From Escherichia coli (GTDB taxonomy: Bacteria; Pseudomonadota; Gammaproteobacteria; Enterobacterales; Enterobacteriaceae): a stretch of DNA of 64,000 nt. How positions within the stretch are numbered: the first letter of the stretch is position 1; every line of letters starts with the position of its first letter. A program made the translations under genes and the position numbers. The notes under the pieces were generated by a model. That model searched no databases. It saw only the letters and a list, made by a program, of their open reading frames with translations, and had not been told where the DNA came from. Shown here in pieces: positions 39,724 through 62,429 of the stretch. Location: assembly GCF_009931435.1 (NCBI RefSeq), contig NZ_CP043414.1; one strand, given 5' to 3'.

Positions 39724-39734
39724 TTCAGACATCA

Positions 39735-39762: not shown

Positions 39763-39768
39763 TTCACA

Positions 39769-43351: not shown

Positions 43352-43855
43352 ATGTCACAAACCGTTCATTTCCAGGGCAACCCGGTTACAGTCGCCAATT
43401 CCATCCCGCAGGCGGGTAGCAAAGCGCAGACTTTTACTCTCGTGGCAAAAGATCTGTCTGACGTCACCCTCGGTCAGTTTGCGGGTAAACGCAAAGTGCT
43501 GAACATTTTCCCGAGTATTGATACCGGTGTTTGCGCCGCATCAGTACGTAAGTTTAACCAACTGGCAACCGAGATCGACAACACCGTTGTGCTGTGTATC
43601 TCTGCCGATCTTCCGTTCGCCCAGTCTCGTTTCTGCGGCGCAGAAGGTCTGAACAACGTTATCACCCTCTCCACTTTCCGTAACGCTGAATTCCTGCAAG
43701 CCTACGGTGTGGCAATTGCTGATGGCCCACTGAAAGGTCTGGCAGCGCGTGCCGTTGTGGTTATTGATGAAAATGACAATGTGATTTTCAGCCAGCTGGT
43801 GGATGAAATCACCACCGAGCCGGATTACGAAGCAGCTCTGGCTGTACTGCGCTAA
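43352..43855 (+). CDS. tpx: Thiol peroxidase Tpx (atypical 2-Cys peroxiredoxin)
   Basis: 167-aa ORF. Peroxidatic Cys in [10 protein letters not shown], resolving Cys in LCISADLPF. Confidence 0.97.
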
Positions 43856-43863
43856 ACAACTGT

Positions 43864-43901
43864 GCCGTTCACTGAATCACCACCGGTGAACGGCAGTTTT
43901 T
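43864..43901 (+). terminator. Rho-independent terminator after tpx
   Basis: Stem gccgttcac / gtgaacggc followed by agttttt. Confidence 0.8.
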
Positions 43902-44008
43902 GATCTACCAGTCCCACTATTTTCCAGAGTTCCTGCCACTATTCCCCCTAACCGTTGTGCATTAAGATTGCTCTTTGCCATTATTAGCCCAGCGGAGTGA
44001 TGACTATT

Positions 44009-46051
44009 ATGGATGATAAACAAATTACGGTCTGGCTTAAACACAATTGCTGTTCAACGGACATTCCTGCCATTGCCGAGGCACTAACGAACCATGCAGA
44101 ATGGCTTTTAGAGCTAGCGCCAGATCCTATTGATCAAGGTAGTTCATGCTTACCGCCGGCAGCTGCAGCTGGTATTTTTCTTGGCGCAGCGGCGATGGTT
44201 CACTGCGGCGAGGCCAGTGGTGCAGAAACCTGGCTCGAAGCAGCCATTACTGATTACCATTTCTTTAATCCAAACGGATATAGTTCATGGAGAGGCAGTA
44301 CGCCTGTTTTTACAGCAATATCGCGTTACCCGGCATTAAAAATGGTGTTATTTAACGCCGCTTGCGCAATGGAAGACTGGAATAAAGCATCCGCTGTTCT
44401 TGAATCGCTTTTCAATGCCAGCGATGTCCCGAAAGATAACCCTGTCGCCCCCAATTTTACCCCTTATGCGCTGAAAGATATTATCGCGGATAACCTCCCG
44501 TTAGGGCCTGCTTATTATGATGAAACCTGGTTGCTGGCAAAACAAGCGTGGTTAATTAATGCGGGCGTTCTGGATGAGCGAACATGCAATACCTGGAAGC
44601 AATATACCCGCCATTTGCGCCATTTGATCCACAATGCACAGTTTTCCGATGCGATCTCTTTTGTACGCAGTAAAAAAGAACCATTAAATCATATCCATAC
44701 CTACTCAGACTTTTATCTCTATGCGATTGGTTTATTTTCTTCTACTGATCAGCTAAGTGAAGCGCTAACCTGGGTAAAACAATTAATCCGCAACAATGAT
44801 GGTCATTTCCATGATCTTTTCGTTTCAACTGGCGCAAAGCGCCGCATAAAGCCTGAACTTAGTACCTTGCTGAATAATCTCTTGCACAGCGCAGAGTTTC
44901 AGGCGTTGCAGGATAAATATCTCACCGTCGGACATGATGTTGTGCATTCTGGTCCCTTCATGTCACTTTATGAAAAGGTTCTTGGCGGTAAGTCCCGAAA
45001 GCGCTGCGCGATTAGTCGAAAATTAATCTCGCCCGGCGAAGCGGTTTATGAATATCGTCAGCTGGATAGTGTGGAATATATTGCAGCGAAAGCGGCCTTT
45101 CAGACATCTGAGCTAAATAATATCGCCCACCGGCATCATAATGATAGTTATCAGTGGCATGAATTTGCCGCCCAATGGCCTCGTCGGGGTTCACTTTCTC
45201 ACCCAGATATTGCCCGTTATTTGTTTGAGCGCCAGGAAGGAAAATGCTTTGATGCCGCAGAGTTTATACCACTGATTGCGGAACCGTTTGTCTTTCCGAT
45301 GCGTTTCATATGGGTTGCCGGGTTGTCCTTTGAATTACATCAGTATCCGGATGCCTATTTCGTAAATGACAATATGGCGGGTGAATTTGTTAATCTCTGC
45401 TGGATGGCTATGAAATGCGGACATGCTGGCGACATTTTCAAACAACTGGCCCACGAGCCGCATGACGTTGCTGACCCTATTTACGCCATGCTCGCCACGT
45501 TTGACCGCTCTGATTGCCGTAGCGCCGCCGCCGCGCACTTTGGACAACCGGAACTACCGGAAATAATGGCACTGGCTTTCAGTTCGAGGTTATCGCTCGA
45601 CAGCGTACTTACCATCGCTGAGTTTGGTAAAAATCAGCCGCGATTTTCACATGCGCTAGCAACGGCCCTCCTGCGTTACAACCTGCACATCTACTCAAAC
45701 TATATGCCGCAGGTTAACTGGTACCTTCAGGGGCTGGAACACTATGCTTTGGCAAAAGGCGGTCAACTTTTAAATTTCTTTGTGCATATTCCAGAACAAA
45801 TTCCCGTTCTGGCGACCATGCTGGAACATGGCGTATTAGTGCGTGGGATCGGTGAAGGTGCCTATGATGGTTATGATAATTCAGCAAATTCATTTCATCA
45901 TGCCGCCGTGATGCACTGCCTTGAGCACGCGCCGGAAAAAGTCCGCTACTGGATGGAAACACCCTGGATTCAGAACTATTTAGTGAATGCGCCGCTGCGT
46001 CAAACGGCGCGCCATGTGGAAGCCTGGCATAAAAAGTTTGGCATCAAATGA
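44009..46051 (+). CDS. Hypothetical protein of about 680 aa, no recognisable domain; accessory gene in the tpx-tyrR spacer
   Basis: Uninterrupted 2-kb ORF. SD ggag at 43994-43997, 11 nt before ATG 44009 (MDDKQITVWLKHNCC...); in-frame GTG 43997 and ATG 44000 are alternative starts. No signal peptide, no obvious TM segments, no Walker/HTH/nuclease motif that I can identify. Rare codons AGA and CTA occur in frame. Confidence 0.75.
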   Translation: MDDKQITVWLKHNCCSTDIPAIAEALTNHAEWLLELAPDPIDQGSSCLPPAAAAGIFLGAAAMVHCGEASGAETWLEAAITDYHFFNPNGYSSWRGSTPVFTAISRYPALKMVLFNAACAMEDWNKASAVLESLFNASDVPKDNPVAPNFTPYALKDIIADNLPLGPAYYDETWLLAKQAWLINAGVLDERTCNTWKQYTRHLRHLIHNAQFSDAISFVRSKKEPLNHIHTYSDFYLYAIGLFSSTDQLSEALTWVKQLIRNNDGHFHDLFVSTGAKRRIKPELSTLLNNLLHSAEFQALQDKYLTVGHDVVHSGPFMSLYEKVLGGKSRKRCAISRKLISPGEAVYEYRQLDSVEYIAAKAAFQTSELNNIAHRHHNDSYQWHEFAAQWPRRGSLSHPDIARYLFERQEGKCFDAAEFIPLIAEPFVFPMRFIWVAGLSFELHQYPDAYFVNDNMAGEFVNLCWMAMKCGHAGDIFKQLAHEPHDVADPIYAMLATFDRSDCRSAAAAHFGQPELPEIMALAFSSRLSLDSVLTIAEFGKNQPRFSHALATALLRYNLHIYSNYMPQVNWYLQGLEHYALAKGGQLLNFFVHIPEQIPVLATMLEHGVLVRGIGEGAYDGYDNSANSFHHAAVMHCLEHAPEKVRYWMETPWIQNYLVNAPLRQTARHVEAWHKKFGIK

Positions 46052-46060
46052 ACGTTGCCG

Positions 46061-46079
46061 CTGCGCCTGAACGGCGCAG
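46061..46079. terminator. GC-rich hairpin between convergent stops of the hypothetical ORF and tyrR
   Basis: ctgcgcc-tgaac-ggcgcag (7-bp GC stem). No adjacent T-run, so function as a terminator is uncertain. Confidence 0.35.
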
Positions 46080-46088
46080 CCAGCACAA

Positions 46089-47630
46089 TCACTCTTCGCT
46101 TTTCTTCTGGTTTAAGCCATATTCCCGCAACTTATTGGCAATCGCGGTATGCGAAACGCCGAGACGTTTTGCCAGTTTGCGCGTGCTGGGATAATTGCGA
46201 TAAAGCTGAGTTAATACCGAGCGTTCAAAACGGCTGGTAATTTCGTCCAGCGAACCTTCCATCGCATCTTCGCCCACGGCTACCGTTGCGGCGTCATAAT
46301 CCGGCAACAAAATATCCTGAGGACGCAGCTCATAGCCGTCCAGTTGTGTCAGTGCGCGATAGATAGCGTTCTTTAACTGCCGCACATTTCCCGGCCACGC
46401 ATAACGCGTAAGTACAGTATTCAGGTCAGCGGCCAGTTTCGGACGCGGCACGCCCTGCTCGTCGGCAAAGCGAGCGACGAACAGCTCAGTTAACGGCATG
46501 ATGTCCTGCGGACAGTCACGTAACGGCGGTAGATTGAGCGTCAACACGTTCAGACGATAATAGAGATCTTCACGGAAAACGCCTTTTTGCACCAGTTCGA
46601 CTAAATTCTTCTGCGTAGCGCAAATCACCCTTACATCGACATGCACTTCATGATCTTCACCAACTCGACGGAAAGTGCCATCATTAAGGAAACGCAGTAA
46701 TTTCGCCTGCATCCTTGGCGACATCTCGCCTATCTCATCTAACAGCACCGAACCACCGTTCGCCTGCTCAAAGAACCCTTTTTTACCTTCCGGAGCATGA
46801 CCAAACAGTTCACTCTCGACCGCATCTTCCGGTATAGACGCGCAGTTCAGCGCCAGGTAAGGTTTGCCCGCTCGTGGGCTTGCCTGATGGCAGGCGTAGG
46901 CAAAGAGATCTTTACCTGTACCGGTGTCACCCGTAATCAGCAACGGCGCGCTTAGCATCGCCAGTTTCTGCGCCTGTTCGACAACATGCTTCATTTTCGG
47001 GCTGACGGCGACAATTTGACTGAAGGCACTGACGTCCTGTGCAGCGACATTCTGCAACTGACGGCCCATACGAATCGTCGAGCGCAACATCACCACCGCA
47101 CCGGTCAGAACGTGTTGATCATTTTCATCCTGAAGATAAACAGGCGTAATCTCCATCAGGAAATTCTGCCCATTAATAACGACATGCTCGTTATGCGAGT
47201 CTTGCGGTTCGCTTTCCAGCCAGCGTAAAAAATTAAAGCCGTTAATTAATTGCGCGGCGGTATGGTTGCGCAGGCGATCCAATTTTTGCCCAAAAAGCTG
47301 ACAGCTCGCCGGGTTCGCCATATCCACTTTGCTTTTCATATCAACAGAAAGCACAGGCTCAGGCAACGCCTCCAGTAACGCGCTCAACGCCAGATGCTCA
47401 CGTTCGGAAGGCATCCACGGAACAGTGCGCACATCGGTAACACCTGCAATACGGCGTATTTCGGCCATCAGACTGCTGAAACTTTCAAATTCCAGTTCGG
47501 CAAAATTGAGGTAGATTCGCCCAATGGGGTCAATCTCAATACCGCGTAAATCAATGCCTCTCAGCACCAGTAGATCGAGTAATTCGCGGGTCAGACCAAG
47601 TCGGTCTTCACAAAAGACTTCCAGACGCAT
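46089..47630 (-). CDS. tyrR: Transcriptional regulator TyrR (ACT-PAS-sigma54-type AAA+ - HTH)
   Basis: 513 aa from MRLEVFCEDRLGLTRELLDLLVLRGIDLRGIEIDP. AAA+ Walker A (GDTGTGKD). C-terminal HTH. The track ORF is extended 9 codons upstream. Confidence 0.96.
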   Translation of the reverse strand: MRLEVFCEDRLGLTRELLDLLVLRGIDLRGIEIDPIGRIYLNFAELEFESFSSLMAEIRRIAGVTDVRTVPWMPSEREHLALSALLEALPEPVLSVDMKSKVDMANPASCQLFGQKLDRLRNHTAAQLINGFNFLRWLESEPQDSHNEHVVINGQNFLMEITPVYLQDENDQHVLTGAVVMLRSTIRMGRQLQNVAAQDVSAFSQIVAVSPKMKHVVEQAQKLAMLSAPLLITGDTGTGKDLFAYACHQASPRAGKPYLALNCASIPEDAVESELFGHAPEGKKGFFEQANGGSVLLDEIGEMSPRMQAKLLRFLNDGTFRRVGEDHEVHVDVRVICATQKNLVELVQKGVFREDLYYRLNVLTLNLPPLRDCPQDIMPLTELFVARFADEQGVPRPKLAADLNTVLTRYAWPGNVRQLKNAIYRALTQLDGYELRPQDILLPDYDAATVAVGEDAMEGSLDEITSRFERSVLTQLYRNYPSTRKLAKRLGVSHTAIANKLREYGLNQKKSEE

Positions 47631-47700
47631 GGGAACCTTCACCTGAAAAAAGAACAATTAATATGATGATATGACACTATTTGGATAGCAGGAAGGTTTC

Positions 47701-47718
47701 TGTCAACAATCATTGACA
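47701..47718. promoter_or_regulatory. TyrR-box-like palindrome in the tyrR promoter region
   Basis: TGTCAA-N6-TTGACA, one mismatch per half-site from the TGTAAA-N6-TTTACA consensus, about 70 bp upstream of the tyrR start. Confidence 0.35.
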
Positions 47719-47777
47719 CAAAGACGGAAAAACGGGCACTTCGGCGTAAAGATATCCGGTCAGCACCCGATATTGCA

Positions 47778-48839
47778 TTATTTTTCGCTGGGCGTTTTGC
47801 CTTTTTGCAGCGTCTCTTTCACCTGACCGATAAGCTGACGACGGAAATCCCCGAGGCGAGGTTTGTCATCGTCAATCCACGGCAGCGGGCGGCAAAGCTC
47901 CATAGCTTTAATCCCCAGTCGTGCCGTCAGAAGTCCAGCACCAATCCCCTGAGCTGCCCGGGTAGACAAACGCGCAGCGAGATCTTGCGACATCCAGTCC
48001 ATCCCCACTTCGCGCACCAATTCGCTGGCTCCGGCAAAAGCGATATTCAGCAATACCAGCTTAAACAGGCGCAAACGGCTGTAATATCCCAGTTCAATGC
48101 CATACAGCGTGGCGATGCGATTGATCAAACGCAGATTGCGCCAGGCGATAAATGCCATATCCACCAGCGCCAGCGGGCTAACGGCGATCATTAACGTTGA
48201 TTCCGCCGCTGAGCGACTGATTTCGCGCCGCGCCTGGGCATCTAAAACCGGCTGGACCAGATGAGCATACAGGCTGACCACTTCACGATCGTTCTGCGTT
48301 TCATGGATTGAGGCATACCAGCGTTGCAGTGCCGGATGCGACTGGTCGATGCCCGCCTGCTGCGCCAGTTTTTCGCAGAATGCACGGCCTTTACCCGTGC
48401 CGTGACTGTGCAACAAATCGCGCGCTTCGTCGCGTTCATGGGCGCGCTGTCGCAAGCGCCATAAGCGCCGCCACTCTGTTACCACTGAACCTACGCCAGC
48501 GCCGATAATCAATGCCCCAGCGGCACATCCACCCAGCGCTACCCAATCCTGAGTTTGCCAGGCATTCATCGTCCACTGCACGCCCTGCCCGACAACGCTT
48601 GCACCAAACAGAGCCAACCCGCCCATCACCATTTTGCGCCACAGGCTGCGTTTCGGACGTAACGCTGCGTCCATCACCGCTTCAACTTGCCCCTCTTCTT
48701 CCTGCGCTTCGTCGAGCGTGGCCGGGGCAAAATTTTGCGCCTGATTTTCGTCAAAGGTCTGCTGCGCCCTGAATTTTGGATTCTGATCGACCTCCAGTGG
48801 ACCGTCGAAATCAATACGTGGTTTTAACGGTTCGGTCAT
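47778..48839 (-). CDS. ycjF: YcjF, inner-membrane protein of unknown function (UPF0283/DUF697)
   Basis: 353-aa ORF with central hydrophobic helices. Start overlaps the ycjX stop by 4 nt. Confidence 0.9.
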
Positions 48840-50233
48840 CGCAATTTATCTCCTATTAAAAATTCCAGCGCAGCATCAAGACGAATATGCGGCAGCGGTT
48901 TGTCGACATCCATCACCTGCGGACGAAACGCCTCAAACTGGAAGCCTTGCTTATCCCAGAACGCCTGACCAGGCAAACGTGCGGGAACTTCGCCAGGATA
49001 AACAGTGAGCGGTGCACCATCACTGAGTCGATTACCGCGCAGCGCCGGGATTTTCTCACCGTTAACATCAATAATGCCGCTGGTGGTCGCCTGAACTGAC
49101 GCCAGCCCCAGGCAGTCCATACTGATCCCTTCGAACGCCGCATTTTGCCAGGCATCCTGAATCAGTTGTTGCAGTAATGAAACCATATTGGCGTGCTGAT
49201 CGATGGTCACATGGTCTGCTTTAGTGGCAGCAAACAATAGCTTATCGATAACCGGCGAAAACAAACGCCGGAACAGGGTTCGCTGCCCGTAGTGGAAACT
49301 TTGCATCAGCTGCGTCAGCGCCAGACGCATATCATTAAATGCCTGTGGCCCACTGTTGAGCGGTTGCAGGCAGTCCACCAGCACAATCTGCCGATCAAAA
49401 CGCAGGAAGTGATTTTTATAGAACCCCTTCACCACTTTCTCGCAGTAATAATTAAATCGTTCGCGCAGCATTCCGGCATTGGTGTGCTTGTCGGCCTGTG
49501 CAAGTTTTGATTCGCCCCAGGCATCGACATCGGGCCACGGGAAGAATTGCAGCGCGGGCGCACCTGCCATATCGCCCGGCAAGACAAAACGTCCAGGCTG
49601 AATAAAGTGCAGCCCCTGCTGTTTGCAGTGGTGGAGATAATCGGTCCATGCGGCAGCAATGTCTGCAAGACGGTTTTCGTCGGCAGGTGCTAGTGGGTCC
49701 AGCCCTTCGCACATCATTCGCCATTTTGCCGACCATTCGCCGCGCTGACCATTGAGTAAGCCCGTCATCTGGCGCGACCAGCTTAAATAGTCCTGCGCCA
49801 ACATCGGCAAGTCGAGTAACCATTCGCCAGGATAATCCACTATCTCCAGATACAACGTGGAAGTGTCTTTGAAGTGACGCAACAGCGAATCGTTCGATTT
49901 ATAGCGTAGCGCCAGGCGAATCTCACTGACGCCGCGTGTTGGGGTCGGCCAGGCGGGAGGATCGCCATATAACTGCGCCAGCCCTTCATCGTAGGTGAAG
50001 CGTGGAATGCCAAAGTCACGCTGGGGAATGCGTTTTACGCCCAGCAGGCGCTCTTCACGCACCGCACTTAATAGCGGCAAGCGTGCTCCGGCATGAATAT
50101 TGAGCAACTGATTGACCATCGCAGTGATAAACGCGGTTTTGCCGCTGCGGCTAAGTCCGGTTACAGCGAGGCGCAGATGTCTGTCGACACCCCGATTCAC
50201 CAGCGCATTAAGTTCATTTTTAAGTCGCTTCAT
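48836..50233 (-). CDS. ycjX: YcjX, conserved P-loop NTPase of unknown function (DUF463)
   Basis: 465 aa from [39 protein letters not shown] (Walker A GLSRSGKT). The track ORF is extended 29 codons upstream. Confidence 0.9.
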
Positions 50234-50377
50234 TGCTGTCCTGTGGACCAGAAAAAAATCATTCGTAAGGATATGAATGTGGGGGCCATGCCCTTGATTA
50301 TCAACTGCCCGTGTTGTCATCTTGAGGCGAACTCCATAAGATGTGCAGCATTCACGTTCGGACGGAGTTCCTGACCT

Positions 50378-51376
50378 ATGTCCCCTACTATTTATGATAT
50401 TGCCAGGGTTGCCGGCGTATCAAAATCCACCGTATCACGCGTGCTGAATAAGCAAACCAATATCTCCCCGGAAGCGCGCGAAAAAGTGTTACGGGCCATT
50501 GAAGAATTACAGTATCAGCCAAATAAACTGGCCCGCGCGCTGACCTCTTCGGGCTTTGATGCCATTATGGTGATTTCTACCCGCTCGACCAAAACTACGG
50601 CGGGTAACCCGTTTTTCTCCGAAGTTTTGCATGCCATTACCGCCAAAGCGGAAGATGAGGGTTTCGACGTGATATTGCAGACGTCGCACAACCCAGCTGA
50701 AGACTTACAAAAATGTGAAAGCAAAATTAAGCAGAAAATGATTAAAGGCATTATTATGCTAAGTTCGCCAGCAGATGAGTCTTTTTTCGCCCAACTCGAT
50801 AAATACGATATTCCGGTGGTAGTAATTGGCAAAGTTGAAGGTGAATATGCCCATGTTTATTCTGTCGATACCGATAATTTTGGCGACAGTATTGCGCTGA
50901 CCGATGCATTAATTGAAAGTGGACATAAAAATATTGCCTGCCTACATGCTCCGCTTGATGTCCATGTTTCGGTTGACCGCGTTAATGGTTATAAGCAAAG
51001 TCTGGAAGATCATAATATTGCAGTGCGCAATGAGTGGATCGTTGACGGCGGTTATACCCATGAGACAGCACTGCAAGCCGCGCGGGAATTATTAAGCCAG
51101 TCACCGTTGCCTGAGGCAGTGTTTGCTACTGACAGCCTGAAATTAATGAGCATTTATCGTGCGGCGGCAGAGAAAAACATTGCTATTCCGCAGCAGTTAG
51201 CGGTGGTGGGTTATAGTAATGAAACGCTGTCGTTTATATTAACGCCTGCACCGGGCGGCATCGATGTTCCGACGCAGGAGTTAGGTCAACAAAGCTGCGA
51301 GTTATTATTCCGCTTAATTGCCGGAAAACCGTCACCACAAAATATTACCGTTGCCACGCATATGTCGTTGAAATAA
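50378..51376 (+). CDS. ycjW: LacI-family transcriptional repressor YcjW
   Basis: 332-aa ORF. N-terminal LacI HTH ([21 protein letters not shown]), periplasmic-binding-protein-like effector domain. Confidence 0.93.
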
Positions 51377-51394
51377 ATGCCAGCTACGTTGCCT

Positions 51395-51478
51395 GAATGC
51401 CGGATGCGATGCTGGCGCATCTTATCCGGCCTACATTTATAAACCGGATAAAGTACTCGCGCCGCATCCGGCAATTTA
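51395..51478. repeat. REP elements (BIME-like pair)
   Basis: gcctgaatgccggatgcgatgctggcgcatcttatccggcctaca followed by ccggataaagtactcgcgccgcatccggca, between ycjW and ompG. Confidence 0.8.
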
Positions 51479-51486
51479 GCACATTA

Positions 51487-52392
51487 TCAGAACGCGTAAT
51501 TCACACCGACACCTGCATAATGGAATTTATCGCTGTCGCCTTCATCGTGATCCTGCCACTCAAACGCGTATTCCAGCGAAACGGAAAGACCATTCTGGAA
51601 ATCATAACCGTAAAACAAACCAAGACGGTTAAAATCATGGCCTTCACGTTCGATATCATCCTGCCAGTCCCAGTTACTCCAGCGATCCAACCCAATGCGC
51701 GTATACGGTGTTACCGAGTGATTGCCGAGCGTCAGCGGTAAATAGGCGCGAATTTCTTGCGTGGAGAATTCACCGTTATTGCGGCTGTCGTCCATATTGA
51801 AGCCGCGCTCGAGATAATAGTTCACTCGCAAGGCAACCGTTTCGTTGAAGGTATATTGCAGACCCGTTTCCGTTTCGACACGGGTATCAGCATAACCGGT
51901 TGTATTCAGATCGTTGGCAAATTTATACATCGACAGCCATCCGTTGAAACGTAAATCGTCAGTCAGTTTCACGTCCCAGTCTGGCGCGATTTTCCAGCGC
52001 TGCATATTTGCCGTGTCTTTACCCGGTTCATCAACGTAGTGATAACCATAGTTACGGAAACCACCGGTCAGGCCGAAACTGAAATCATCGCTTTCGAGAA
52101 ACTGATAATGCACTTCCAGTTCCGGGCGATCAAACCAGGTTCCACGTTTACCCGCGCTATAATCTACCGGCCCTTCCTGGTAATAAGCCAGCGATATTCT
52201 CCACGGCCCATTGGCAGCATTAAAATAGACGGAAGGCTCCGCCAGCCCGTCCATATCTTCGCCATAACCCTCGACGTTTTCTATTTCGTACATCGCGCCG
52301 ATATTAAAGTGCCAGTCGTTTTTTTCCTCAGCCTGTGCGCAGGCCATTCCCGCACACATCACCAGTGCGGTACAGGGTAATAACTTTTTCAT
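51487..52392 (-). CDS. ompG: Outer membrane porin OmpG (monomeric 14-strand beta-barrel)
   Basis: 301-aa ORF, signal peptide MKKLLPCTALVMCAGMACAQA, C-terminal ...VNYAF. Confidence 0.95.
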   Translation of the reverse strand: MKKLLPCTALVMCAGMACAQAEEKNDWHFNIGAMYEIENVEGYGEDMDGLAEPSVYFNAANGPWRISLAYYQEGPVDYSAGKRGTWFDRPELEVHYQFLESDDFSFGLTGGFRNYGYHYVDEPGKDTANMQRWKIAPDWDVKLTDDLRFNGWLSMYKFANDLNTTGYADTRVETETGLQYTFNETVALRVNYYLERGFNMDDSRNNGEFSTQEIRAYLPLTLGNHSVTPYTRIGLDRWSNWDWQDDIEREGHDFNRLGLFYGYDFQNGLSVSLEYAFEWQDHDEGDSDKFHYAGVGVNYAF

Positions 52393-52436
52393 TATTGTTC
52401 CTTGTATTATCCTGGGGGAATGCCTTCCCCCTGTAT

Positions 52437-53519
52437 TTAGCGAATTGCTATTTCCGTTTCTGCATCAAAGAAATGACATTTGGTCATATCGAAATGAATA
52501 GTGACGTTTTCTCCTGCATGATAATCATTTAACGCACCAGCACGGACCACTAACTCGTGCCCCCCAACCGTGGTGTAGAGCATAAATTCCGCACCGGTTA
52601 ATTCTGCCACGCTAATTTTGGCGGAAATGTTATTTTCCTCTTGCGCATCCGGATGAATATCTTCCGGGCGTATTCCCATCACGATGGGCTTATGCAAGCT
52701 TTCCTGCGTTTTCAGAACCGCTAATTTATCTTCGGGAATGGTTAATTTAAGCGTTTCCGTAACGAATTTATCGCCATCGATCGTGCCGCGAATAAAATTC
52801 ATTGCTGGTGACCCAATAAAGCCGGCAACAAACATATTCGCCGGTTGGTTATAGACCGTTTTCGGCGCACCGACCTGCTGAACAATCCCATCCTTCATAA
52901 TGACAATCCGCGTCGCCATGGTCATCGCTTCGGTCTGATCGTGGGTCACGTAGATCATGGTGGTGTTCAGTTTCTGATGCAGCTTGCTGATTTCCGCGCG
53001 CATTTGTACGCGCAGCTTGGCATCCAGGTTAGAGAGCGGTTCATCCATCAAAAACACGCCCGCTTCGCGCACAATCGCCCGTCCGAGCGCCACACGCTGG
53101 CGTTGCCCGCCGGAAAGCGCACCCGGCTTGCGTTTCAGGTACTCACGCAGGCCAAGGATTTGCGCCGCCCAGTTAACCCGCTCATCAATCACCTCTTTGG
53201 CGATTTTTTGCATCTTCAGGCCAAACGCCATGTTGTCGTAGACCGTCATATGCGGATACAGCGCGTAGTTCTGGAACACCATCGCGATATTGCGTGCTTT
53301 GGCCGGAACGTCATTCATTCGTTTACCGTCGATCAACAGATCGCCGCCGCTGATCTCCTCAAGCCCGGCAATCATACGCAGGGTGGTCGATTTACCGCAG
53401 CCCGACGGACCGACAAACACGATGAACTCTTTATCGGCAATCTCCAGGTTGAAGTCCTTCACCACATGCACCTGGTTATCGTAGATCTTTTGAATATGTT
53501 GTAACGAAAGCTGTGCCAT
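52437..53519 (-). CDS. ycjV: ABC transporter ATP-binding protein (MalK-like), intact
   Basis: 360-aa ORF. Walker A (GPSGCGKST), ABC signature (LSGGQRQR), Walker B (FLMDEPLSNLD), C-terminal MalK-type regulatory domain. No frameshift, unlike the K-12 pseudogene. Confidence 0.92.
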   Translation of the reverse strand: MAQLSLQHIQKIYDNQVHVVKDFNLEIADKEFIVFVGPSGCGKSTTLRMIAGLEEISGGDLLIDGKRMNDVPAKARNIAMVFQNYALYPHMTVYDNMAFGLKMQKIAKEVIDERVNWAAQILGLREYLKRKPGALSGGQRQRVALGRAIVREAGVFLMDEPLSNLDAKLRVQMRAEISKLHQKLNTTMIYVTHDQTEAMTMATRIVIMKDGIVQQVGAPKTVYNQPANMFVAGFIGSPAMNFIRGTIDGDKFVTETLKLTIPEDKLAVLKTQESLHKPIVMGIRPEDIHPDAQEENNISAKISVAELTGAEFMLYTTVGGHELVVRAGALNDYHAGENVTIHFDMTKCHFFDAETEIAIR

Positions 53520-53532
53520 GTTGATTCCTTTG

Positions 53533-54192
53533 CTATACGTTTTGCCAGAAGGCCGATAACCGCGGCCAGGTCAGGGACTCCGTTGAGGGCAACAGTAATT
53601 GCGCCCCAGTTAAGCCCGCGCCGATCCCCACCGAGCGCATACCGCTGGCGTTAATGGCGTCAATGCCCGCCTGCGCATCTTCAATGCCGATACATGCCTG
53701 CGGCGGCACGCCCAGCCCGGCACAGGCGGCGAGAAAGATTTCCGGGTCCGGTTTCGAGTGTTTAAGTTGGGAAGCGTCCGCGCAGAAGGTGAAAAACTCG
53801 CGCAGCTCCAGCGCCGCTAAAATTGTTGGGGCATTCAGAGAGACGGAGGCCAGCCCTACCGGGATGCCTTGCGCCCGAAGATCTGCCAGCAAAGGCCGAA
53901 TTCCCGGCAGAACAGCGTTAACCGTCAGTTCGCGCAGTGAGTGGACGTAGAGCAGATTTTTGCGATACGCCAGTTGCGCCCGCTCTTGCACGTTAAAGTC
54001 GCCCTCTTTGCCCCCGTGTTGCAGAATGCGTCGCAGGGACTCATCGCGGCTGATCCCTTTTAACGTCTCGTTAAATTGCACATCGATGCCGATGCCGATT
54101 TCGGCTGCAATCTGCTGCCATGCCTGGAAGTGCAGATGTGCGGTGTCGGTGATCACGCCATCCAGATCGAAAATTACCCCTTGTAGTTTCAT
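53533..54192 (-). CDS. ycjU: Beta-phosphoglucomutase (HAD superfamily)
   Basis: 219-aa ORF with HAD motif I DxD ([12 protein letters not shown]). Confidence 0.93.
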
Positions 54193-56456
54193 TCATCCTC
54201 CTGATGCGTGGTAGCGGTCCCATTGAAGGGCAAAATAAAATCACCCAAACAGAAAACAGATTCTTCAGTCACGGAAATAAGCTGACCGTTCAACCGCAGT
54301 GAAACAGGCGCAGAAGTTCGAATCGCAATACGCTGCGCGTCGAGAGTGACCTGTAATTCGCAGCCTTGCCAGAACAGAGGGAAAGACAACTGTTGCCACT
54401 GCTCAGGTAACGCCGGATTGAGATGTAATTCGCCGTCGCGCACGCTGACTCCGGCAAAACCCTGAATCGCGCCCAGCCAGATAGCGCCAGTTGCGGCAGC
54501 GTGGATACCGTCATCGCAGCTATGCGGATCAGCACCAAGATCGATTTCACTCCCCTCGCGCCAGAACGGGTAACTCTGCGCAGGCAAGCCACAACGCGCG
54601 GCAACAATGCCGTGGATCGCTTTACTCAATGACGAGTCGTGAATGGTGCGCGGTTCATAAAATTGCAGATTGGCGAGACAAGAGGCCGCTGAAAATTGTT
54701 CCGGTAGCATGTAATTGAGCATCACCACATCGGCCTGCTTGAGGATCTGCATCTCGTTCACTTCTGCGCGTGAATAATCCAGCAGAATGGTTTGTTTGCC
54801 TGCCGCCGCTTTGTATTTCGCCAGATCTATCGCCGGTTTCGCCATAAACGAATCATCCTGCGGCAAAACGCCGTCGGGCTGAATTTCTGGCATCCACAGC
54901 TCTTTGAGGAACATGTCGGCACGATGAATAAACGCGTCGTCGCTACAGCCAAACTGGCGAGCAATATTCAGCGCCTGTTGGACGTTGTAGCAGGCCATAT
55001 AATTGGTGTATGCGTTATTATTAACGTGTTCGGTATATTCGTCTGGCCCAATAACATCATGAATTTCCAGACGATCGTTAACCCTTACCGCGCGGCTAAT
55101 CCAGAACTTTGCGGTCTCCAGCAGTAGCGCCATGCCTTCGTGAGCAATGAAGCTTTCATCCCCTGTTACCTGCCAGTATTGAATAACCGCCCAGGCGATA
55201 TCGGCAACCAGATGATGTTCTGCCAGCGCTGAGGCCACTTTTTGCCGCAGCCCGGTACGAATGTTAATGGCGGCAAATTCCGGCGTTTCTTCTTCGCCGC
55301 TACGTGCGCTCTCCCACGGAAACAGCGCGCCCTGCCAGCCATTGCGTCGCGCTTTCTCCTGCGCCCCCGGTAAGTTGTGCCAGCGATAGCGCAGCAAACT
55401 CCGGGCAATCGTCGGTTCGCTAAACAGATGGAACGGCAGCAGGAACACTTCCGTATCCCAGAAAACGTGGCCTTTGTAGCCTTCGCCGGTTAAGCCTTTC
55501 GCCGCAATGCTGCTACGCTCGTCATGGGCGGGCGTCATAATACGCAAATGATAAAGCGCATAGTCTAACGCCCGCTGATCGTGCGCATCGCAACTGTTTA
55601 CCGTGATACGACGTTTCTGCCACCATTGCTGCCAGTTTTCTGTGGATGCTGCTAGAAGTTGGTCATAACTCTGTTGCGTGCACCTTTCGAGCTGGCGAAG
55701 CGACGCACTGCCCCACTCGTCTAAAGCGGCTTGTCGGTCGTCCCGCCAGTCAATCCACACCCGCTTTTGCAAGGTCAGTGTTTCACCTGTGCGAAGTTGC
55801 GCGCTGGTATGTTGCAGCAAACGGCGCTCTTTTGCGGTATAGCACTGCTGAACGTCACCACTCGCCTGACAGTGACAACTGATGGCCACATCACTGCGCC
55901 CATCCTGGGTGGTGTAGATCCCCTGCATCAAATGCTGACCAAACACCCGCACCTGGGTTTCGTCCAGATGCTGGCGACCGTGGTTGGTTTGCGTGGCATC
56001 AATGCCTGTTGAAATCAGCACTGACGCGTCGGCGTCCAGCGGGGTAATACTGATTTCCAGCGCGACCAGCGGCAGTTGATCTGTTGAAACAAAACGACGG
56101 CTTTCAAGGGTGAACCCTGCGCCGTCGCTGGTGCGCCAGATAACACTGCGGCGTAATTCTCCACTGGCAAAGTCAAGCTCACGCTGCCACGCTTCGCAGG
56201 ATAACGAAAAAATCTCGCCGTTTAGGGTAATTTCCATTCCCACCACGTCTGGCAGATTCACCAGTTCGTTGATTTCTCCTTTACCCGCTCGATGATAAAG
56301 CCCTGCCAGATACATGCCGCGCGTCTGCCGCGTGTAATCTTCTTCATGGCTGGCACGAAGCCCAAGATAGCCGTTCCCCTGCGCCATTAATGAGGCATAT
56401 TTATTCAGGGTATGCTGGCTGAAATGGGGTTCCGTTAATGTTACTGGCCTGGTCAT
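54189..56456 (-). CDS. ycjT: Kojibiose phosphorylase (glycoside hydrolase family 65)
   Basis: 755-aa ORF, GH65-family sequence. Overlaps ycjS and ycjU by 4 nt each. Confidence 0.92.
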
Positions 56457-57508
56457 AATTCCACACGCGTCCCTGTTTCTGCGGATTGATACAGCGCCGC
56501 CACCAGTTGCTGGATGATGTACCCTTGCTCGGCGTCGGCAATCATCACTGGCTTGCCCTGTACGTGATTGATAAAGGCTTCCATGCTGCGCAAATGACGG
56601 TTGTCGTCGGCCAGTTCCCGTTGCATCAGCGTCATTAATTCACCGTTGTTATCGGTGTAGATATGCGCCGGAAACAGCGTGGCTCCGGCTTTATCACCGC
56701 AAAAGCTGACGTTCATAATCGACTGTTCGCGGATGTTGAGTGCAAATGATGTCTCGAGCCAAAGAATGCCGCCGTTATGAAATTCAATGGTGCCAAACAG
56801 CGAATCTTCGACGCTGTAGGTTGCCGGGTCCCACTCACCAAATTGACCACAGCTCTTTTGCGGGCCGATCTTTTGAAAGCTGTGCGCATTCACGCTTTTC
56901 ACCGCCGGAAAGCCCAGCACATACATCGCGGCATCCAGCATATGAATGCCTATGTCGATCAGCGGGCCACCGCCCTGCAATTCTTTATTGGTAAAGACAC
57001 CCCAGCCGGGAACACCGCAACGACGCAGGGCGCGGGCGGTGGTAACGTAAATCTCTCCCAAAACGCCGTTGGTCACCTGTTCACGCAGCTGTTGCGTATC
57101 GAGCGCAAAACGATGGTGAAAGTCGTAGGCCAGCACCTTGCCCTGTTTGCGCGCGGTATCGCACATTTCCCGCGCCTGTTCTGGTGTCATGGCGGGCGGT
57201 TTCTCGCACATCACATGGCAGCCTGCCTCCAGCGCCATCAGGGTATGCTCGTAATGAAAACGGTTAGGTGAACAGACGCTTACCACGTCAGGTTTTACCG
57301 CCAGCAGCATGGCCTGCGGATCGTCCCACACGGATGCGTTCCCGTATTTCTCTGCCAACGCCTGCGCCTGGGAAAGACGGCTGTCACAGACAGCCACCAG
57401 TTCCAGATCGTTGCGGGTGCAGTAGTACGAAGCATGAACCTTATCCGCCACCTGGCCCGCGCCTATTATCGCGACCCGCAGCGGAGAGCTTGTCATTGCA
57501 CTTTTCAC
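56453..57508 (-). CDS. ycjS: Gfo/Idh/MocA-family NAD-dependent sugar dehydrogenase
   Basis: 351-aa ORF with N-terminal Rossmann motif (RVAIIGAGQVADKVH). Confidence 0.9.
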   Translation of the reverse strand: MKSAMTSSPLRVAIIGAGQVADKVHASYYCTRNDLELVAVCDSRLSQAQALAEKYGNASVWDDPQAMLLAVKPDVVSVCSPNRFHYEHTLMALEAGCHVMCEKPPAMTPEQAREMCDTARKQGKVLAYDFHHRFALDTQQLREQVTNGVLGEIYVTTARALRRCGVPGWGVFTNKELQGGGPLIDIGIHMLDAAMYVLGFPAVKSVNAHSFQKIGPQKSCGQFGEWDPATYSVEDSLFGTIEFHNGGILWLETSFALNIREQSIMNVSFCGDKAGATLFPAHIYTDNNGELMTLMQRELADDNRHLRSMEAFINHVQGKPVMIADAEQGYIIQQLVAALYQSAETGTRVEL

Positions 57509-57517
57509 AAAGACCTC

Positions 57518-58306
57518 TTAGCAGGTGCGCAACCAGGCCAAAGAATCACGGTACGCCTGAGCAGGATCTTCTGCCCGAATGCGCCCTTCATACACCACAT
57601 AGCCCTGATAGTTATCGGCGCGCAGCTGTTCAAACAGCGCGTGGAAATCGAGGGTGCCACTGCCCGGCTGATAGCGATGATTATCGGCAATATGCACATG
57701 ACCAAGCAGGTCACGGTTGTCATGCAGCGCCTGCGCCAGGTTATCCTCTTCGATATTCATGTGATAGAAATCGCCGATAATCTGCACATGTTTAAGATCG
57801 TTTTCGACGATGTAACGACGTGCATCGGCGAGCGTGTTGATCATGTGGTCCTGATAGCGGTTTAGCGGTTCGAGATACACCACCGTTCCGGTACGCGCGG
57901 CCACCTTTTCCAGGAAACGCAGGGAATCGCTCACCATTTGACGATCGCCGTCCAGGCTGCGCGGTGAGGTCATCGGCGGTAAGCGGAAGGTAAACATGCC
58001 CCACGCAGCCGGAACGACAATACCTTTGCCGCCCACTTCCGCCAGCGCCTCAAGAATGCGCTCGATCTGCTTTAAACCATTAAGACGACGTTCTTCGATA
58101 AAGTCGCCAATCCAGCCGTCATAACCACCGCAGGCGGTGGTCACCGGTAAACCGGTTTCTTTAATTGCTGCTTTGACTTCTTCGAGATTGTTAACCAGCA
58201 GTTTGCCGTCAATCTCAAAACCATCAAACCCCATCTCTTTGATATAACGAAATTTCTCCAGAATATTTTCTGGAAAGAAGGCCTGATTCTGTGTACCGAT
58301 TTTCAT
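57518..58306 (-). CDS. ycjR: Sugar-phosphate isomerase/epimerase (xylose isomerase-like TIM barrel)
   Basis: 262-aa ORF of the AP endonuclease 2/xylose isomerase-like fold family. Confidence 0.88.
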   Translation of the reverse strand: MKIGTQNQAFFPENILEKFRYIKEMGFDGFEIDGKLLVNNLEEVKAAIKETGLPVTTACGGYDGWIGDFIEERRLNGLKQIERILEALAEVGGKGIVVPAAWGMFTFRLPPMTSPRSLDGDRQMVSDSLRFLEKVAARTGTVVYLEPLNRYQDHMINTLADARRYIVENDLKHVQIIGDFYHMNIEEDNLAQALHDNRDLLGHVHIADNHRYQPGSGTLDFHALFEQLRADNYQGYVVYEGRIRAEDPAQAYRDSLAWLRTC

Positions 58307-58322
58307 TTTTCCGTCCTTAGAA

Positions 58323-59375
58323 TTAAAAAGTTACGCCCATTTTGATGCTCTGTTCCGGATGCTGGTCGACATACTGCATGTAGCTTTCCGGGCTGTTAGC
58401 AAAGGTCACCACCGGGTCGATTAAATCTTCACAATTGAGATAACCGTTCATCAGCAGTTCCCAGCAGGTTTCTTCAATACGCTTGCGGCTCCAGCGCGGA
58501 TAATCCGGGTTCGGTTCACTGCACGCACGAGAGAAGACAATTTTGGCGTTGTTGAAATGCGCTTCACGTCCGAGGTTGAAACCTTCGGCAAATGGTTTGG
58601 CAAATGCGACATACGAGATGGTGCCGCCATAAGCCAGGCCGCGCAGTGCCGATTGCAGCGCGTCGGCGTAGCCGCTGGTTTCGATAATCACATCGGCACC
58701 CTGCTTGCCGGTCAGCGTTTTAATCTCTTTGCCTACATCTGTGCCAATGGGGTTAAGGCAGAAATCCGCCCCGTGGCGACGGGCAATATCACAGCGATGA
58801 GCGATAGGATCGACACCAATCACCACCGACGCGCCAGCGCGTTTTGCCAGTTGAATGGCAATTTGACCAATCGCGCCAAGCCCTACCACCACCACAAAAT
58901 CGCCCACGCGCACGTTGGCATCGCGCACGCCGCTCATGGCAAACTGCGCCGGGTCGTAACAGACGGCGTTTTTCCACGAGCTACCTTGCGGCATCTTGCG
59001 CAGTTTGTAGTTATTCACCGCGTTAATGATGACCGTTTCGGAAAGCGGGCCATAGCCGCATACGCTGTCGCCCACCGCGTAGTCGGTAACCTCGCTGCCG
59101 CACTCGATAATGTCGCCAACCACCATGTTGCCAAGCTGGAACTTGCCAAACTCAATGCCGCGCGGCGCATCTGCCGGACGCGGGGTGAACATCTGCCATT
59201 CGCCATTAAAGTCTTCATTAATAAACGGGCTGGCGGCGCGAAAATCGACCACTTCCGTCCCGTGTTTCGGCGCGCCGAACCGCACGCGGATCTTCACTTC
59301 ATTGGCTGAAATCGCTCTGTCTTCATACTCCACCAATGCGGCAACGCGCGGTGCTGTGGCTACTAACTTTTTCAT
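58323..59375 (-). CDS. ycjQ: Zinc-dependent medium-chain alcohol/sugar dehydrogenase
   Basis: 350-aa ORF with MDR-family NAD-binding motif (VVVVGLGAIGQIAIQLAK). Confidence 0.9.
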   Translation of the reverse strand: MKKLVATAPRVAALVEYEDRAISANEVKIRVRFGAPKHGTEVVDFRAASPFINEDFNGEWQMFTPRPADAPRGIEFGKFQLGNMVVGDIIECGSEVTDYAVGDSVCGYGPLSETVIINAVNNYKLRKMPQGSSWKNAVCYDPAQFAMSGVRDANVRVGDFVVVVGLGAIGQIAIQLAKRAGASVVIGVDPIAHRCDIARRHGADFCLNPIGTDVGKEIKTLTGKQGADVIIETSGYADALQSALRGLAYGGTISYVAFAKPFAEGFNLGREAHFNNAKIVFSRACSEPNPDYPRWSRKRIEETCWELLMNGYLNCEDLIDPVVTFANSPESYMQYVDQHPEQSIKMGVTF

Positions 59376-59405
59376 GTAAAACTCCTTGTCAAGAAACTGG
59401 CCGCT

Positions 59406-60248
59406 TTAGCCCTTCACGCCACCGGCGGTCAAACCACTCTTAATAAAACGTTCCGAAAGTGCATACATAATCACCACCGGCAATGCGGTCACCAGCGAGG
59501 CCGCCATCATTCGGCCCCAGATGTAATCAGGGGTACTGAACAGCGCGTTCAGGCCTACCGGTAAAGTGAAATTGCTGGCGCTGGAGAGGAAAATCGAGGC
59601 AAACAGATAGTCGTTCCACGCCACCATAAAGCAGTAGACGAACACGGATATCAGCCCGGACATCGCCAGCGGTACCGTGATGCGGAAGATGATTTGCAGC
59701 CGGTTGAGGCCATCCATCATCGCCGCTTCTTCGATTTCATCGGGGATGGTGTCGAAGTAGCTTTTCAGCATAAACACGGCGGTAGGCAGGGTTTGCGTAA
59801 CCATGGTGATGATCAGCGCCATCTCGGTGTCGTAAACGCCAAGCGCGGTGATGATTTTGAATAGCGGCACCACCAGCAAAATGCCGGAGAACATGTACAC
59901 CGTGTAGAAGCTGGCGTTGATGGTCATTCGCCCTTTAAAGCGCAGGCGGGAAAGCGCGTAAGCCCCGAGAATGCCGAGAAATACTGCTATCACGGATGAA
60001 ACTACCGACACCACCAGGCTGTTACGGAAATAATCGACAAACGGGAAAATCACCGGGTTAAAAATGTCGACGTAATGCTCCAGCGTCCACTGTTGCGGCA
60101 GCAGCGTAGGATGCAGCGATATCGCCTCTTTCGCGCTCTTAAACGAGGTCATCAGCATCACAAAAAACGGAAACAGCGTGATGATGAGAAACAGCGCCAG
60201 CCCGCAGTAAAAACCGATACGACTGAGTGTGCGTTTATTTGTTGCCAT
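59406..60248 (-). CDS. ycjP: ABC sugar transporter permease
   Basis: 280-aa ORF, 6 predicted TM helices, EAA-loop region (IEEAAMMDGLNRLQIF). Confidence 0.92.
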   Translation of the reverse strand: MATNKRTLSRIGFYCGLALFLIITLFPFFVMLMTSFKSAKEAISLHPTLLPQQWTLEHYVDIFNPVIFPFVDYFRNSLVVSVVSSVIAVFLGILGAYALSRLRFKGRMTINASFYTVYMFSGILLVVPLFKIITALGVYDTEMALIITMVTQTLPTAVFMLKSYFDTIPDEIEEAAMMDGLNRLQIIFRITVPLAMSGLISVFVYCFMVAWNDYLFASIFLSSASNFTLPVGLNALFSTPDYIWGRMMAASLVTALPVVIMYALSERFIKSGLTAGGVKG

Positions 60249-61116
60249 TGAGGTTCACCCGTTTTCTGGTCAGCAGAATGACAGCGAAAATAATGATGAA
60301 GAGCACCACCGAGATCGCCGCCGCTTTCCCTAAGTCATTAAAGGCAAAGGCGGTTTTGTAGAGATAGACGCCGAGAATATCGACCTTGGTCGTCAGCAAA
60401 TAAACGTCAGCGAACATGTAGAACATCCAGATGGTACGCAGAGTCACCACCGTCGCCAGGACCGGCATAATCGCGGGCAGCGTGACAATGCGAAACCGCT
60501 GCCAGGCATTAGCGCCATCCATCTCTGCCGCTTCGTACAGCGATTTGTCGATGGTCTGCAAAATCGCCAGAAACGAAATAAAGGCATACGGGAAGTAGCG
60601 CCAGATGGCGAACAGCACCACCAGCACAAAGCTACTGCCCGGATTATCGAACCACAGCGGTGCCTGCTCATAGAGATGCAGAAGATCGACGCCGAGGTAG
60701 TTCACAATGCCGTAGCCGTTGTTGAACATGTATTTCCAGGCGAACACCAGCGAAATAGACGGCGTTACGTAGGAGAGGATCACCAGCGAACGCGCGGTTT
60801 TGCGCAGGCGGAACTCGCGGTTGAAAAACATCGCCACCGCCAGCCCGAGCACGGTGCTGCCCGCCACCACCAGCGCGGTATACCAGACCGTCATCCACAG
60901 CGAGTGCCAGAAACCGGGATCGGAGAGGATACGCACATAGTTACTCACCCCAACAAACGTTGATTCGATGTTGGGATTGAGCGGCAGACGTAAAAAACTG
61001 ATTTCGATATTCGACACCATCGGCCACGCCACCAGACCGCCCAGCAGTAATAAGCTGGGCGCGAGAAGCAGCAGCGCAAAGGGCATATCGGAACGACCTG
61101 AAAAAAGCCTGTTCAT
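60235..61116 (-). CDS. ycjO: ABC sugar transporter permease
   Basis: 293-aa ORF with EAA motif (YEAAEMDGANAWQRFRIVTLP). Overlaps ycjP by 14 nt. Confidence 0.92.
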   Translation of the reverse strand: MNRLFSGRSDMPFALLLLAPSLLLLGGLVAWPMVSNIEISFLRLPLNPNIESTFVGVSNYVRILSDPGFWHSLWMTVWYTALVVAGSTVLGLAVAMFFNREFRLRKTARSLVILSYVTPSISLVFAWKYMFNNGYGIVNYLGVDLLHLYEQAPLWFDNPGSSFVLVVLFAIWRYFPYAFISFLAILQTIDKSLYEAAEMDGANAWQRFRIVTLPAIMPVLATVVTLRTIWMFYMFADVYLLTTKVDILGVYLYKTAFAFNDLGKAAAISVVLFIIIFAVILLTRKRVNLNGNK

Positions 61117-61136
61117 TGCGGATTCCTGTCCTGGGT

Positions 61137-62429
61137 TTAGTGCTGTTCGACCAACTCATCCAGCTTTTTCTGGCTCGCTTGCAGCGTGGTAGAGAGATCG
61201 GCTTTACCCACGGTGACGTTATGCACCATTGAGCTCACCACGCCAGAACCCGTCACATCGCCCATGCGGGTAAAGTTTTTATCCCCTACTGCGCCAAAGA
61301 CCTGAATATTTGGCAGTTCGCTAATCAACTGATTCGGCAAGTCTCCCAGCGCCTTAATCACGTCGTTATCTTTCCAGGTGGCAGTCGTCACAACCGCTTT
61401 GTTCACCGGCAGCGCCGCGCCTGGTGACATCATCACCCAGTCGGCAATGTTGTCTGCCTGCTCCATAAAGGTGACAAATTTTTCCGCCGCTTCCGTCTCT
61501 TCGCTTTTTTGCCCGGCGGTAATGGTCAGCGAGGTCAACATGCCGTAGACCGCCGAGTTTTTCTCGGTTGGCACCACGAAACCGACATTCTTCGGGTCGC
61601 CTTCTTTAATCACAGCCGGAAGGATATAGGTGGAGTAAATCGCCATCGGCGCGGTGCCGTTCATAAAGGCGTCTTTCACTTCCATAATGTCGTTAGAACC
61701 CGGCATGGTGTTGGCAGCAAGGTCGCGGTAATAGGTCAGCGCCTGCATCATCTCCGGCGTATCAAGAGTGATTTTGCCTTCGGCGTTAAAAACGTTGGCC
61801 TGATTGGATAACGCAAACTGAGAGAACGATTGTTCCGTCAGTACGCTTTCTGCCGTCGGCAGTGCAATACCGTATTTTTTATTCGCCGGATCGTTCAGTT
61901 TCTGTGCGACATCCAGCAACTGTTGCCAGTTTTTCGGCTCATCCAGCCCGGCTTTTGCCAGCACATCTTTGCGATACCAGATACCGCCAATCCATGCGCT
62001 GACAGGAACACCGGTCCAGGCGCTACCATCTTCGGTGCGCACAATCCGCAGAACGCCGTCATAAAACGCGCCTTCACCGACATTACTGATGACCGTAGCA
62101 ACCGCTTTGCGATCGATAAGCTGTTCTTTGTCCATCACTTTGGCGTAGTCATGGCTGGTTTCGATCACTTCCGGCAGCGAGCCGCTACGGGAAAGGGTGA
62201 TGACTTTGGTGTTATAGGCATCTTCTTCCACCGGCACTTGTTTAACAGTGATGCCTGGGTTTTCTTTTTCAAAACGCGCAATTAACTGACTAATTACCGC
62301 CTGGCGTTCCTGTTCCACCGAAGAATGCATAAACTCGATGGAGACATTCGTTTTATTTTCTTCTTTACAGCCTGAAATCAGGGCGCAGGAAACCAGTGCT
62401 GATAACAGCACGATTTTTGATTTAATCAT
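61137..62429 (-). CDS. ycjN: ABC sugar transporter periplasmic substrate-binding protein
   Basis: 430-aa ORF, signal peptide/lipobox-like N-terminus (MIKSKIVLLSALVSCALISGC), family-1 solute-binding protein. Confidence 0.92.
   Translation of the reverse strand: MIKSKIVLLSALVSCALISGCKEENKTNVSIEFMHSSVEQERQAVISQLIARFEKENPGITVKQVPVEEDAYNTKVITLSRSGSLPEVIETSHDYAKVMDKEQLIDRKAVATVISNVGEGAFYDGVLRIVRTEDGSAWTGVPVSAWIGGIWYRKDVLAKAGLDEPKNWQQLLDVAQKLNDPANKKYGIALPTAESVLTEQSFSQFALSNQANVFNAEGKITLDTPEMMQALTYYRDLAANTMPGSNDIMEVKDAFMNGTAPMAIYSTYILPAVIKEGDPKNVGFVVPTEKNSAVYGMLTSLTITAGQKSEETEAAEKFVTFMEQADNIADWVMMSPGAALPVNKAVVTTATWKDNDVIKALGDLPNQLISELPNIQVFGAVGDKNFTRMGDVTGSGVVSSMVHNVTVGKADLSTTLQASQKKLDELVEQH

Follow-up and report, generated by a model that had tools for sequence, protein, structure and literature searches.

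Arrays of unrelated immunity genes without toxins have been described in bacteria as "heterogeneous polyimmunity loci"; immunity domains are also known to be fused to TPR and ankyrin repeats, and immunity families can show conservation signatures dominated by aromatic residues (Zhang et al. 2012, PMC3482391). [quoted passage not shown] The DNA considered here, termed the window, is a stretch of 64,000 nucleotides from Escherichia coli (contig NZ_CP043414.1). Between the core genes tpx and tyrR it carries an open reading frame (ORF; 44009..46051, plus strand) for a protein of 680 amino acid residues. Since members of its family are found recurrently beside immunity genes, the product is most likely an orphan immunity protein; we give about an even chance to its being cytoplasmic, representing a new family, and acting against interbacterial toxins.

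Recognised immunity families are present in five of approximately 16 informative, independent neighbourhoods of family members, and these five loci, in which the relative keeps the company of known immunity families, match the description of polyimmunity loci by Zhang et al. (2012, PMC3482391). An island in Salmonella enterica combines a family member with an orphan DUF3396/TsiV gene, remnants of insertion sequences (IS), and small lipoprotein-like ORFs. In an enterobacterial island downstream of hrpA the relative is accompanied by Tli4_C, an ankyrin protein, and three YD-repeat paralogues. A metagenomic co-directional array holds a family member together with DKNYY and SUKH_6/SMI1_KNR4, and another array has DKNYY and Tsi3. 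The fifth locus, on a Sinorhizobium conjugative plasmid, adds to the family member two SMI1/KNR4 genes, two DUF1963 genes, and one DUF3396 gene. In one locus (L006 3305-7484; also L007-L009) two divergent family paralogues stand in tandem. The upstream paralogue is split exactly at the boundary between the N- and C-terminal domains into ORFs of 358 and 344 residues with overlapping stop and start codons, and could be either a pseudogene with a frameshift or a version that functions as two chains.

Other genes of these islands were also recorded. The Salmonella island (L001 1545-1964) and the hrpA island (L010 13459-13923) share a small secreted protein of 139 and 154 residues, respectively, with 61% identity and no Pfam family. 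The three YD-repeat paralogues of the hrpA island are about 285 residues long and possess signal peptides. On the minus strand of the Salmonella island (L001 13114-17878) lie co-directional genes for a 400-residue protein, a DUF1266 protein, a 703-residue DUF4034-plus-Sel1-like protein, and a 239-residue protein. DUF4034 (PF13226) was considered as a family assignment, as UniProt labels two of the relatives found by Foldseek "DUF4034 domain-containing" and the 703-residue DUF4034 protein occurs in the same island as a family member. Membership was rejected: neither the 680-residue protein nor any of 55 aligned relatives has a PF13226 match, and profile comparison with the Salmonella DUF4034 protein was negative.

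By comparison with the immunity proteins of polymorphic toxin systems (SUKH/SMI1_KNR4, Imm-Ank, and DUF3396/TsiV), the new family is alike in its shared arrays, its orphan state, its fusion to TPR-like or ankyrin repeats, its sporadic occurrence across phyla, its tandem paralogues, and a pattern of conservation dominated by aromatic residues and lacking catalytic ones. It differs in being unrelated, by sequence and by fold, to any named immunity family and, at about 690 residues, in being much larger; the 680-residue protein matched none of the hidden Markov models (HMMs) of SUKH, TsiV, Tsi3, Tli4, and Imm. Nor was any member found directly downstream of a toxin gene.

The last of these differences is the first of several points that weigh against an immunity function. 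In about 19 contexts no toxin gene (PAAR, Rhs, VgrG, CdiA-CT, LXG, or other) adjoins a family member, so that the pairing of toxin and immunity protein by which such systems are defined is missing, a departure which is allowed to orphan immunity genes. A length of 680 residues is large for an immunity protein, and in about two thirds of the contexts the family member stands alone between housekeeping genes. All the evidence is guilt by association, and for two of the associated families, DKNYY and DUF1963, an immunity function is itself unproven. Finally, a conserved basic β subdomain, described below, could point to nucleic-acid binding.

The singletons, among them the E. coli copy at tpx-tyrR, a relative lying between malM and ubiC, and a number of loci from alphaproteobacteria and metagenomes, favour a different explanation, namely that the protein serves in the cytoplasm as an accessory scaffold, adaptor, or chaperone-like factor in a role outside conflict, or else is a nearly neutral relic close to loss. 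No conserved operon partner was detected: no recurrent one emerged when 33 neighbours of members from alphaproteobacteria and metagenomes were pooled and scanned with Pfam, and NCBIfam analysis of the large neighbours returned housekeeping enzymes only and no toxins. A repeat architecture suited to scaffolding also speaks for this explanation, as does the fact that several lineages of E. coli have copies that are split, truncated, or disrupted by IS600. We nevertheless judge it unlikely, because selection is still acting on the gene (see below), all six alleles checked are intact, a well-conserved domain of 370 residues has been kept across phyla, and one would not expect a neutral or housekeeping gene to turn up repeatedly in immunity arrays.

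Returning to interbacterial immunity, we infer the function itself, a toxin target in the cytoplasm, and the roles of the two domains as follows. The protein would be a non-enzymatic binder directed against a toxin that competing bacteria deliver via the T6SS or another polymorphic-toxin route, and would block the incoming toxin domain by binding it stoichiometrically. The conserved C-terminal domain would provide the core binding function, the specificity of which may be tuned or extended by the variable N-terminal TPR-like or ankyrin module. As a stand-alone gene it would presumably protect against a toxin of other strains or species and not one of the carrier's own.

That the protein is instead the weapon, i.e. 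an effector secreted by a type III secretion system, T6SS, or other route to act on eukaryotic host cells or rival bacteria, with the TPR or ankyrin repeats serving in target binding, seems very improbable. Many carriers are host-associated, several having strain names of Shiga toxin-producing E. coli (STEC) or diarrhoeagenic type, relatives occur in Salmonella and rhizobia, and eukaryote-like repeat modules are present. Set against this are the absence of a trafficking domain (PAAR, Rhs, MIX, or LXG) and of any Pfam match, the lack of conserved catalytic residues, and the fact that secretion genes or chaperones adjoin no member; moreover, the family co-occurs with immunity genes and not with toxin genes. 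The earlier note on this DNA had named a single-protein defence or toxin-like determinant as examples of what the gene might encode. Its general suggestion of a conflict-related role fits the present data; the specific examples of phage defence and of a toxin find no support, the context being one of interbacterial immunity, and, as regards the toxin example, the protein has neither catalytic residues nor a trafficking domain.

The 680-residue protein is without a match in Pfam, even at E ≤ 10, and in the PADLOC-DB 2.0 collection of defence HMMs (no families at E ≤ 1), as well as in NCBIfam, PHROGs, and the sequences of the PDB, which bears out the earlier observation that it has no recognisable motif. 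Examined singly against Pfam, the 55 relatives gave ankyrin repeats only, in two of them. A word-indexed search of 5.8 billion clusters found only eight, with 49-90% identity, which came from E. coli, from Salmonella enterica, and from a small number of metagenomes, and a profile search of the same database revealed no informative domain fusions. An exhaustive HMMER scan of 1.84 billion representatives recovered 91 proteins at E ≤ 0.001, 35 of them at E ≤ 1e-30. Foldseek against AFDB50 produced 23 significant matches, all of them uncharacterised members of the family, from Enterobacteriaceae, Rhizobiales, Pigmentiphaga, Planctomycetota, Bacteroidota, Desulfovibrio, Listeria, and spirochaetes. 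Just two loci, in Aliirhizobium terrae and Methylobacterium variabile, emerged from 100,044 species-representative genomes in a scan that used patterns from the closer relatives only; the broader alignments were too diverse for pattern scans. The metagenome scan yielded eight loci, and PLSDB contained the family once, on the conjugative Sinorhizobium plasmid. The family is thus extremely sparse yet patchily spread across phyla; it is in no curated library searched and is previously undescribed.

It is absent from IMG/VR and from GenBank phages. This absence, together with the negative PADLOC result and the lack of defence-island context, speaks against the suggestion of phage defence and also against a wider alternative, in which the protein is a stand-alone defence or sensor against phages or mobile elements, the TPR or ankyrin repeats sensing a component of the invader and the C-terminal domain, with its basic PARP-finger-like subdomain, binding nucleic acid or triggering a response. 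No effector domain was seen either. The rarity of this accessory gene, its elevated ratio of nonsynonymous to synonymous substitution (dN/dS), the repeat-type sensor module, a weak structural likeness to the DNA-end-binding PARP zinc finger, and one relative that has a type I restriction subunit at a distance of 6 kb are consistent with such a role, which we nonetheless hold to be doubtful indeed.

Modeling of the full protein with AlphaFold2, using the alignment of 55 sequences, gave a pLDDT of 90.2 and a pTM of 0.91, and the C-terminal domain modeled alone gave values of 91.8 and 0.92. The N-terminal domain (44009..44923, plus strand; residues 1 to about 305) consists of TPR/PPR-like helical repeats, tandem helix-turn-helix units forming a superhelix as in TPR proteins. 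It differs from described TPR/PPR-type proteins in matching none of the Pfam models for TPR, Sel1, and PPR, and in being variable across the family and not family-defining: the N-terminal part of the relatives ranges from about 100 to 500 residues, is shortened or replaced by ankyrin repeats in the distant ones, and in two relatives ankyrin repeats stand in place of the TPR-like domain. The conserved family core is formed by the C-terminal 370 or so residues. These comprise a small basic β subdomain (44957..45103, plus strand; residues 317-365) bearing the family motif LGGKxxKRCxxSxxxIxPGxxVxRxR, and an all-α part (45104..46048, plus strand; residues 366-680) which defines the family and for which the PDB holds no structural neighbour.

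Residues 317-365 display a weak structural likeness to the PARP-type zinc finger (zf-PARP, PF00645). Identity with this finger was rejected, as the CCHC ligand set is not present, only the first Cys being found and three of the four zinc ligands being absent, there is no Pfam match, and the hhalign probability is less than 1%; the likeness may be convergent or a remnant. It does, however, enter into a further interpretation, in which the protein founds a structurally new family and is not a classical toxin-binding immunity protein but a stand-alone conflict module of a new kind, built of a TPR/ankyrin sensor that can be swapped, a basic subdomain resembling a degenerate PARP finger, and an α-helical domain that is likewise new. 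Such a module could act, for example, by binding the ends or structures of DNA or RNA and shielding them from injected nucleases or invading elements. We think this rather unlikely.

Residues conserved in at least 80% of the 55 relatives are C333, G343, R350, F364, P399, G458, G471, F498, Y557, H560, Y562, W571, Y622, and W648, along with several leucines and prolines; the best conserved of the all-α part are G471, F498, Y557, H560, Y562, W571, Y622, and W648. No acidic or catalytic-looking constellation is kept in the alignment, so the conservation is aromatic and structural, as expected of a non-enzymatic binder. For six intact E. coli alleles dN/dS was 0.34-0.46 against the window and 0.27-0.53 over all informative pairs, the N-terminal half giving mostly 0.32-0.56 and the C-terminal half mostly 0.21-0.39. 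For the neighbouring tyrR and ycjG the same alleles, when set against the window, give values of 0.01-0.07. A ratio of approximately 0.3 therefore indicates that the ORF is under selection, yet far less constrained than its neighbours. This weak purifying selection fits a dispensable or conflict-related function; together with the repeated pseudogenisation it counts in favour of an immunity protein.

The ORF itself is flanked on the left by tpx (43352-43855, plus strand) and on the right by tyrR (46089-47630, minus strand), ending 37 bp from the tyrR stop as the earlier note had it. The frame runs intact from an ATG at 44009 to a stop codon at 46049-46051, with a GTG further upstream at 43997; PGAP selects the same 680-residue start in other E. 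coli genomes. The product (76.8 kDa; pI 6.1) is identical to WP_161399904.1, labelled "hypothetical protein [Escherichia coli]." It has no signal peptide, and its single borderline hydrophobic stretch (residues 46-64; Kyte-Doolittle value 1.65) is a buried helix in the structural model, in agreement with the prediction that it lacks signal peptide and transmembrane helices. The untranslated region upstream (43902..44008, plus strand) measures 107 nt and, read from the sequence, contains GGAG at 43993-43996, 12 nt before the ATG; a promoter scan of the region upstream of the ORF returned nothing at threshold, and no Rfam families were found in or around the ORF. The slight AT-richness and rare codons perceived by eye were borne out by calculation: the GC content is 47.3% against 51-57% in six neighbouring genes, and that of third codon positions 45.4% against 54-60%. 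The AGA at 44291-44293 is in frame and seven CTA codons are present. Codon adaptation relative to the genes of the window is 0.674, the sixth lowest of 39, i.e. low and not extreme.

The earlier note gave tpx and tyrR as immediate neighbours in K-12, and this adjacency was confirmed on a large scale: the flanks match in 5,415 of 5,426 complete E. coli genomes, the insert being covered in 30. Searching with the insert alone revealed some part of it in 32 of the 5,426 (approximately 0.6%). All copies of the ORF are chromosomal and, in every genome inspected, located between tpx and tyrR. They fall into two allele classes with about 96-99% and 94% nucleotide identity to the window. Several of the E. 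coli copies have been annotated as a pair of ORFs or have IS600 inserted in them; the six alleles checked, six of six, are intact. The cluster of the protein at 90% identity contains 305 member sequences, including truncated forms of 170-569 residues, and one member is labelled "MULTISPECIES ... [Escherichia]." The ORF is accordingly a true accessory gene of E. coli and intact here, an orphan belonging to no named family, as had been proposed; it has no K-12 ortholog, is not a core gene, and in the window is not a pseudogene, with the qualification that other E. coli lineages carry split or IS600-disrupted copies.

The junction with tpx and tyrR differs from the picture of a gene dropped cleanly between two core terminators. 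In empty-site genomes the gap between tpx and tyrR is 43 bp and contains a strong bidirectional hairpin with a 16-bp stem, which serves as a shared tpx/tyrR terminator. In the window tpx is followed by a terminator-like hairpin (43863..43901, plus strand) with a 12-bp stem (43863-43895) and a U-run (43897-43901), with a folding energy of -20.6 kcal/mol (z -4.2). The hairpin that the earlier note called the intact tpx terminator is thus real; it is not the K-12-type terminator, from which its sequence differs. Between the stop codons of the ORF and tyrR lies a second, GC-rich hairpin (46060..46080; 8-bp stem; -19.7 and -22.9 kcal/mol), with a U-tract on neither strand. The last two codons of tpx also differ, the protein ending ...VLR* in the window and ...VLKA* in empty-site genomes, as do the last codons of tyrR. 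Since the terminator and the final codons of both genes have been exchanged, the K-12-type junction was replaced and not merely split.

This replacement forms part of a larger difference. The linked right flank from tyrR to ycjN (46089..61935) is a rare divergent haplotype, 94.1% identical to a BL21-type genome, with divergence of 7-11% at 53.5-56.5 kb (around ycjT-pgmB-ycjS). The left flank at 39000-43000 is 4-5.6% divergent, and alignment to the BL21-type genome gives 97.1% identity at 30.2-41.5 kb and 96.7% at 41.4-43.8 kb. A search of the 5,426 E. coli genomes with positions 53500-56500 of the window found 20 genomes at 95-99% identity, 4,778 at 90-95% (best 91.7%), and 195 at 80-90%; of the 18 high-identity genomes listed, 15 belong to the 16 that carry the window's allele class, and three are non-carriers. 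The ORF therefore lies within a rare haplotype that extends over at least 16 kb and differs from common E. coli by 4-11%, and the fact that 15 of 16 carriers of the allele class share it points to inheritance or to transfer of a long tract by homologous recombination. Synonymous divergence (dS) between the two ORF allele classes is 0.13-0.15, and the flanking tyrR and ycjG, compared in the same way, have diverged to about the same extent.

No direct or inverted repeats flank the ORF and no mobility gene adjoins it, the latter as noted earlier. Given also the constant chromosomal site and the linkage to a long divergent haplotype, the ORF does not qualify as mobile-element cargo, for which an integrase or transposase, flanking repeats, or a tRNA/att site would be expected. 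The simplest reading of the sequence comparisons is that the ORF has long resided at tpx-tyrR in some Escherichia lineage; the best explanation of its presence in a few lineages of E. coli is that it persisted there vertically or that homologous recombination brought in a tract of 16 kb or more from a divergent lineage of Escherichia, and site-specific insertion is not needed. The divergence of the tyrR-ycjN region points either to such introgression or to a balanced haplotype of ancient origin. A second presence/absence polymorphism lies 2.5 kb from the ORF, at 41383-41564 between mppA (39769-41382) and mpaA (41565-42293), where the window and strain 2017-02-2CC lack pgrR, ycjY, and a dehydratase remnant that BL21- and K-12-type genomes carry.

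Should the immunity function be correct, the protein would represent a new, large, and structurally novel immunity family, and finding its cognate toxin would probably reveal a new class of effector active against enterobacteria. It would also follow that orphan immunity genes can persist singly at fixed sites of the E. coli core genome, this one traveling inside a long divergent recombinant tract without the help of a mobile element. A domain that is modeled with high confidence and lacks any PDB neighbour invites structural work; in practical terms the gene is of modest importance for as long as no phenotype has been demonstrated.

Two other regions of the window attracted attention. Three ORFs on the minus strand at 1422-5400 rank lowest of all those in the window in codon adaptation and in GC content (42-45%); one of them resembles a CDP-alcohol phosphatidyltransferase gene and another a phosphatidate cytidylyltransferase gene, while the third, of 768 residues, has no NCBIfam match. 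At 6532-12024, also on the minus strand, an uninterrupted ORF of 1,830 residues gives a match to the model of the BigA autotransporter adhesin that falls below the curated cut-off (E 3.6e-292). Its K-12 counterpart, ydbA, is an IS-disrupted pseudogene.

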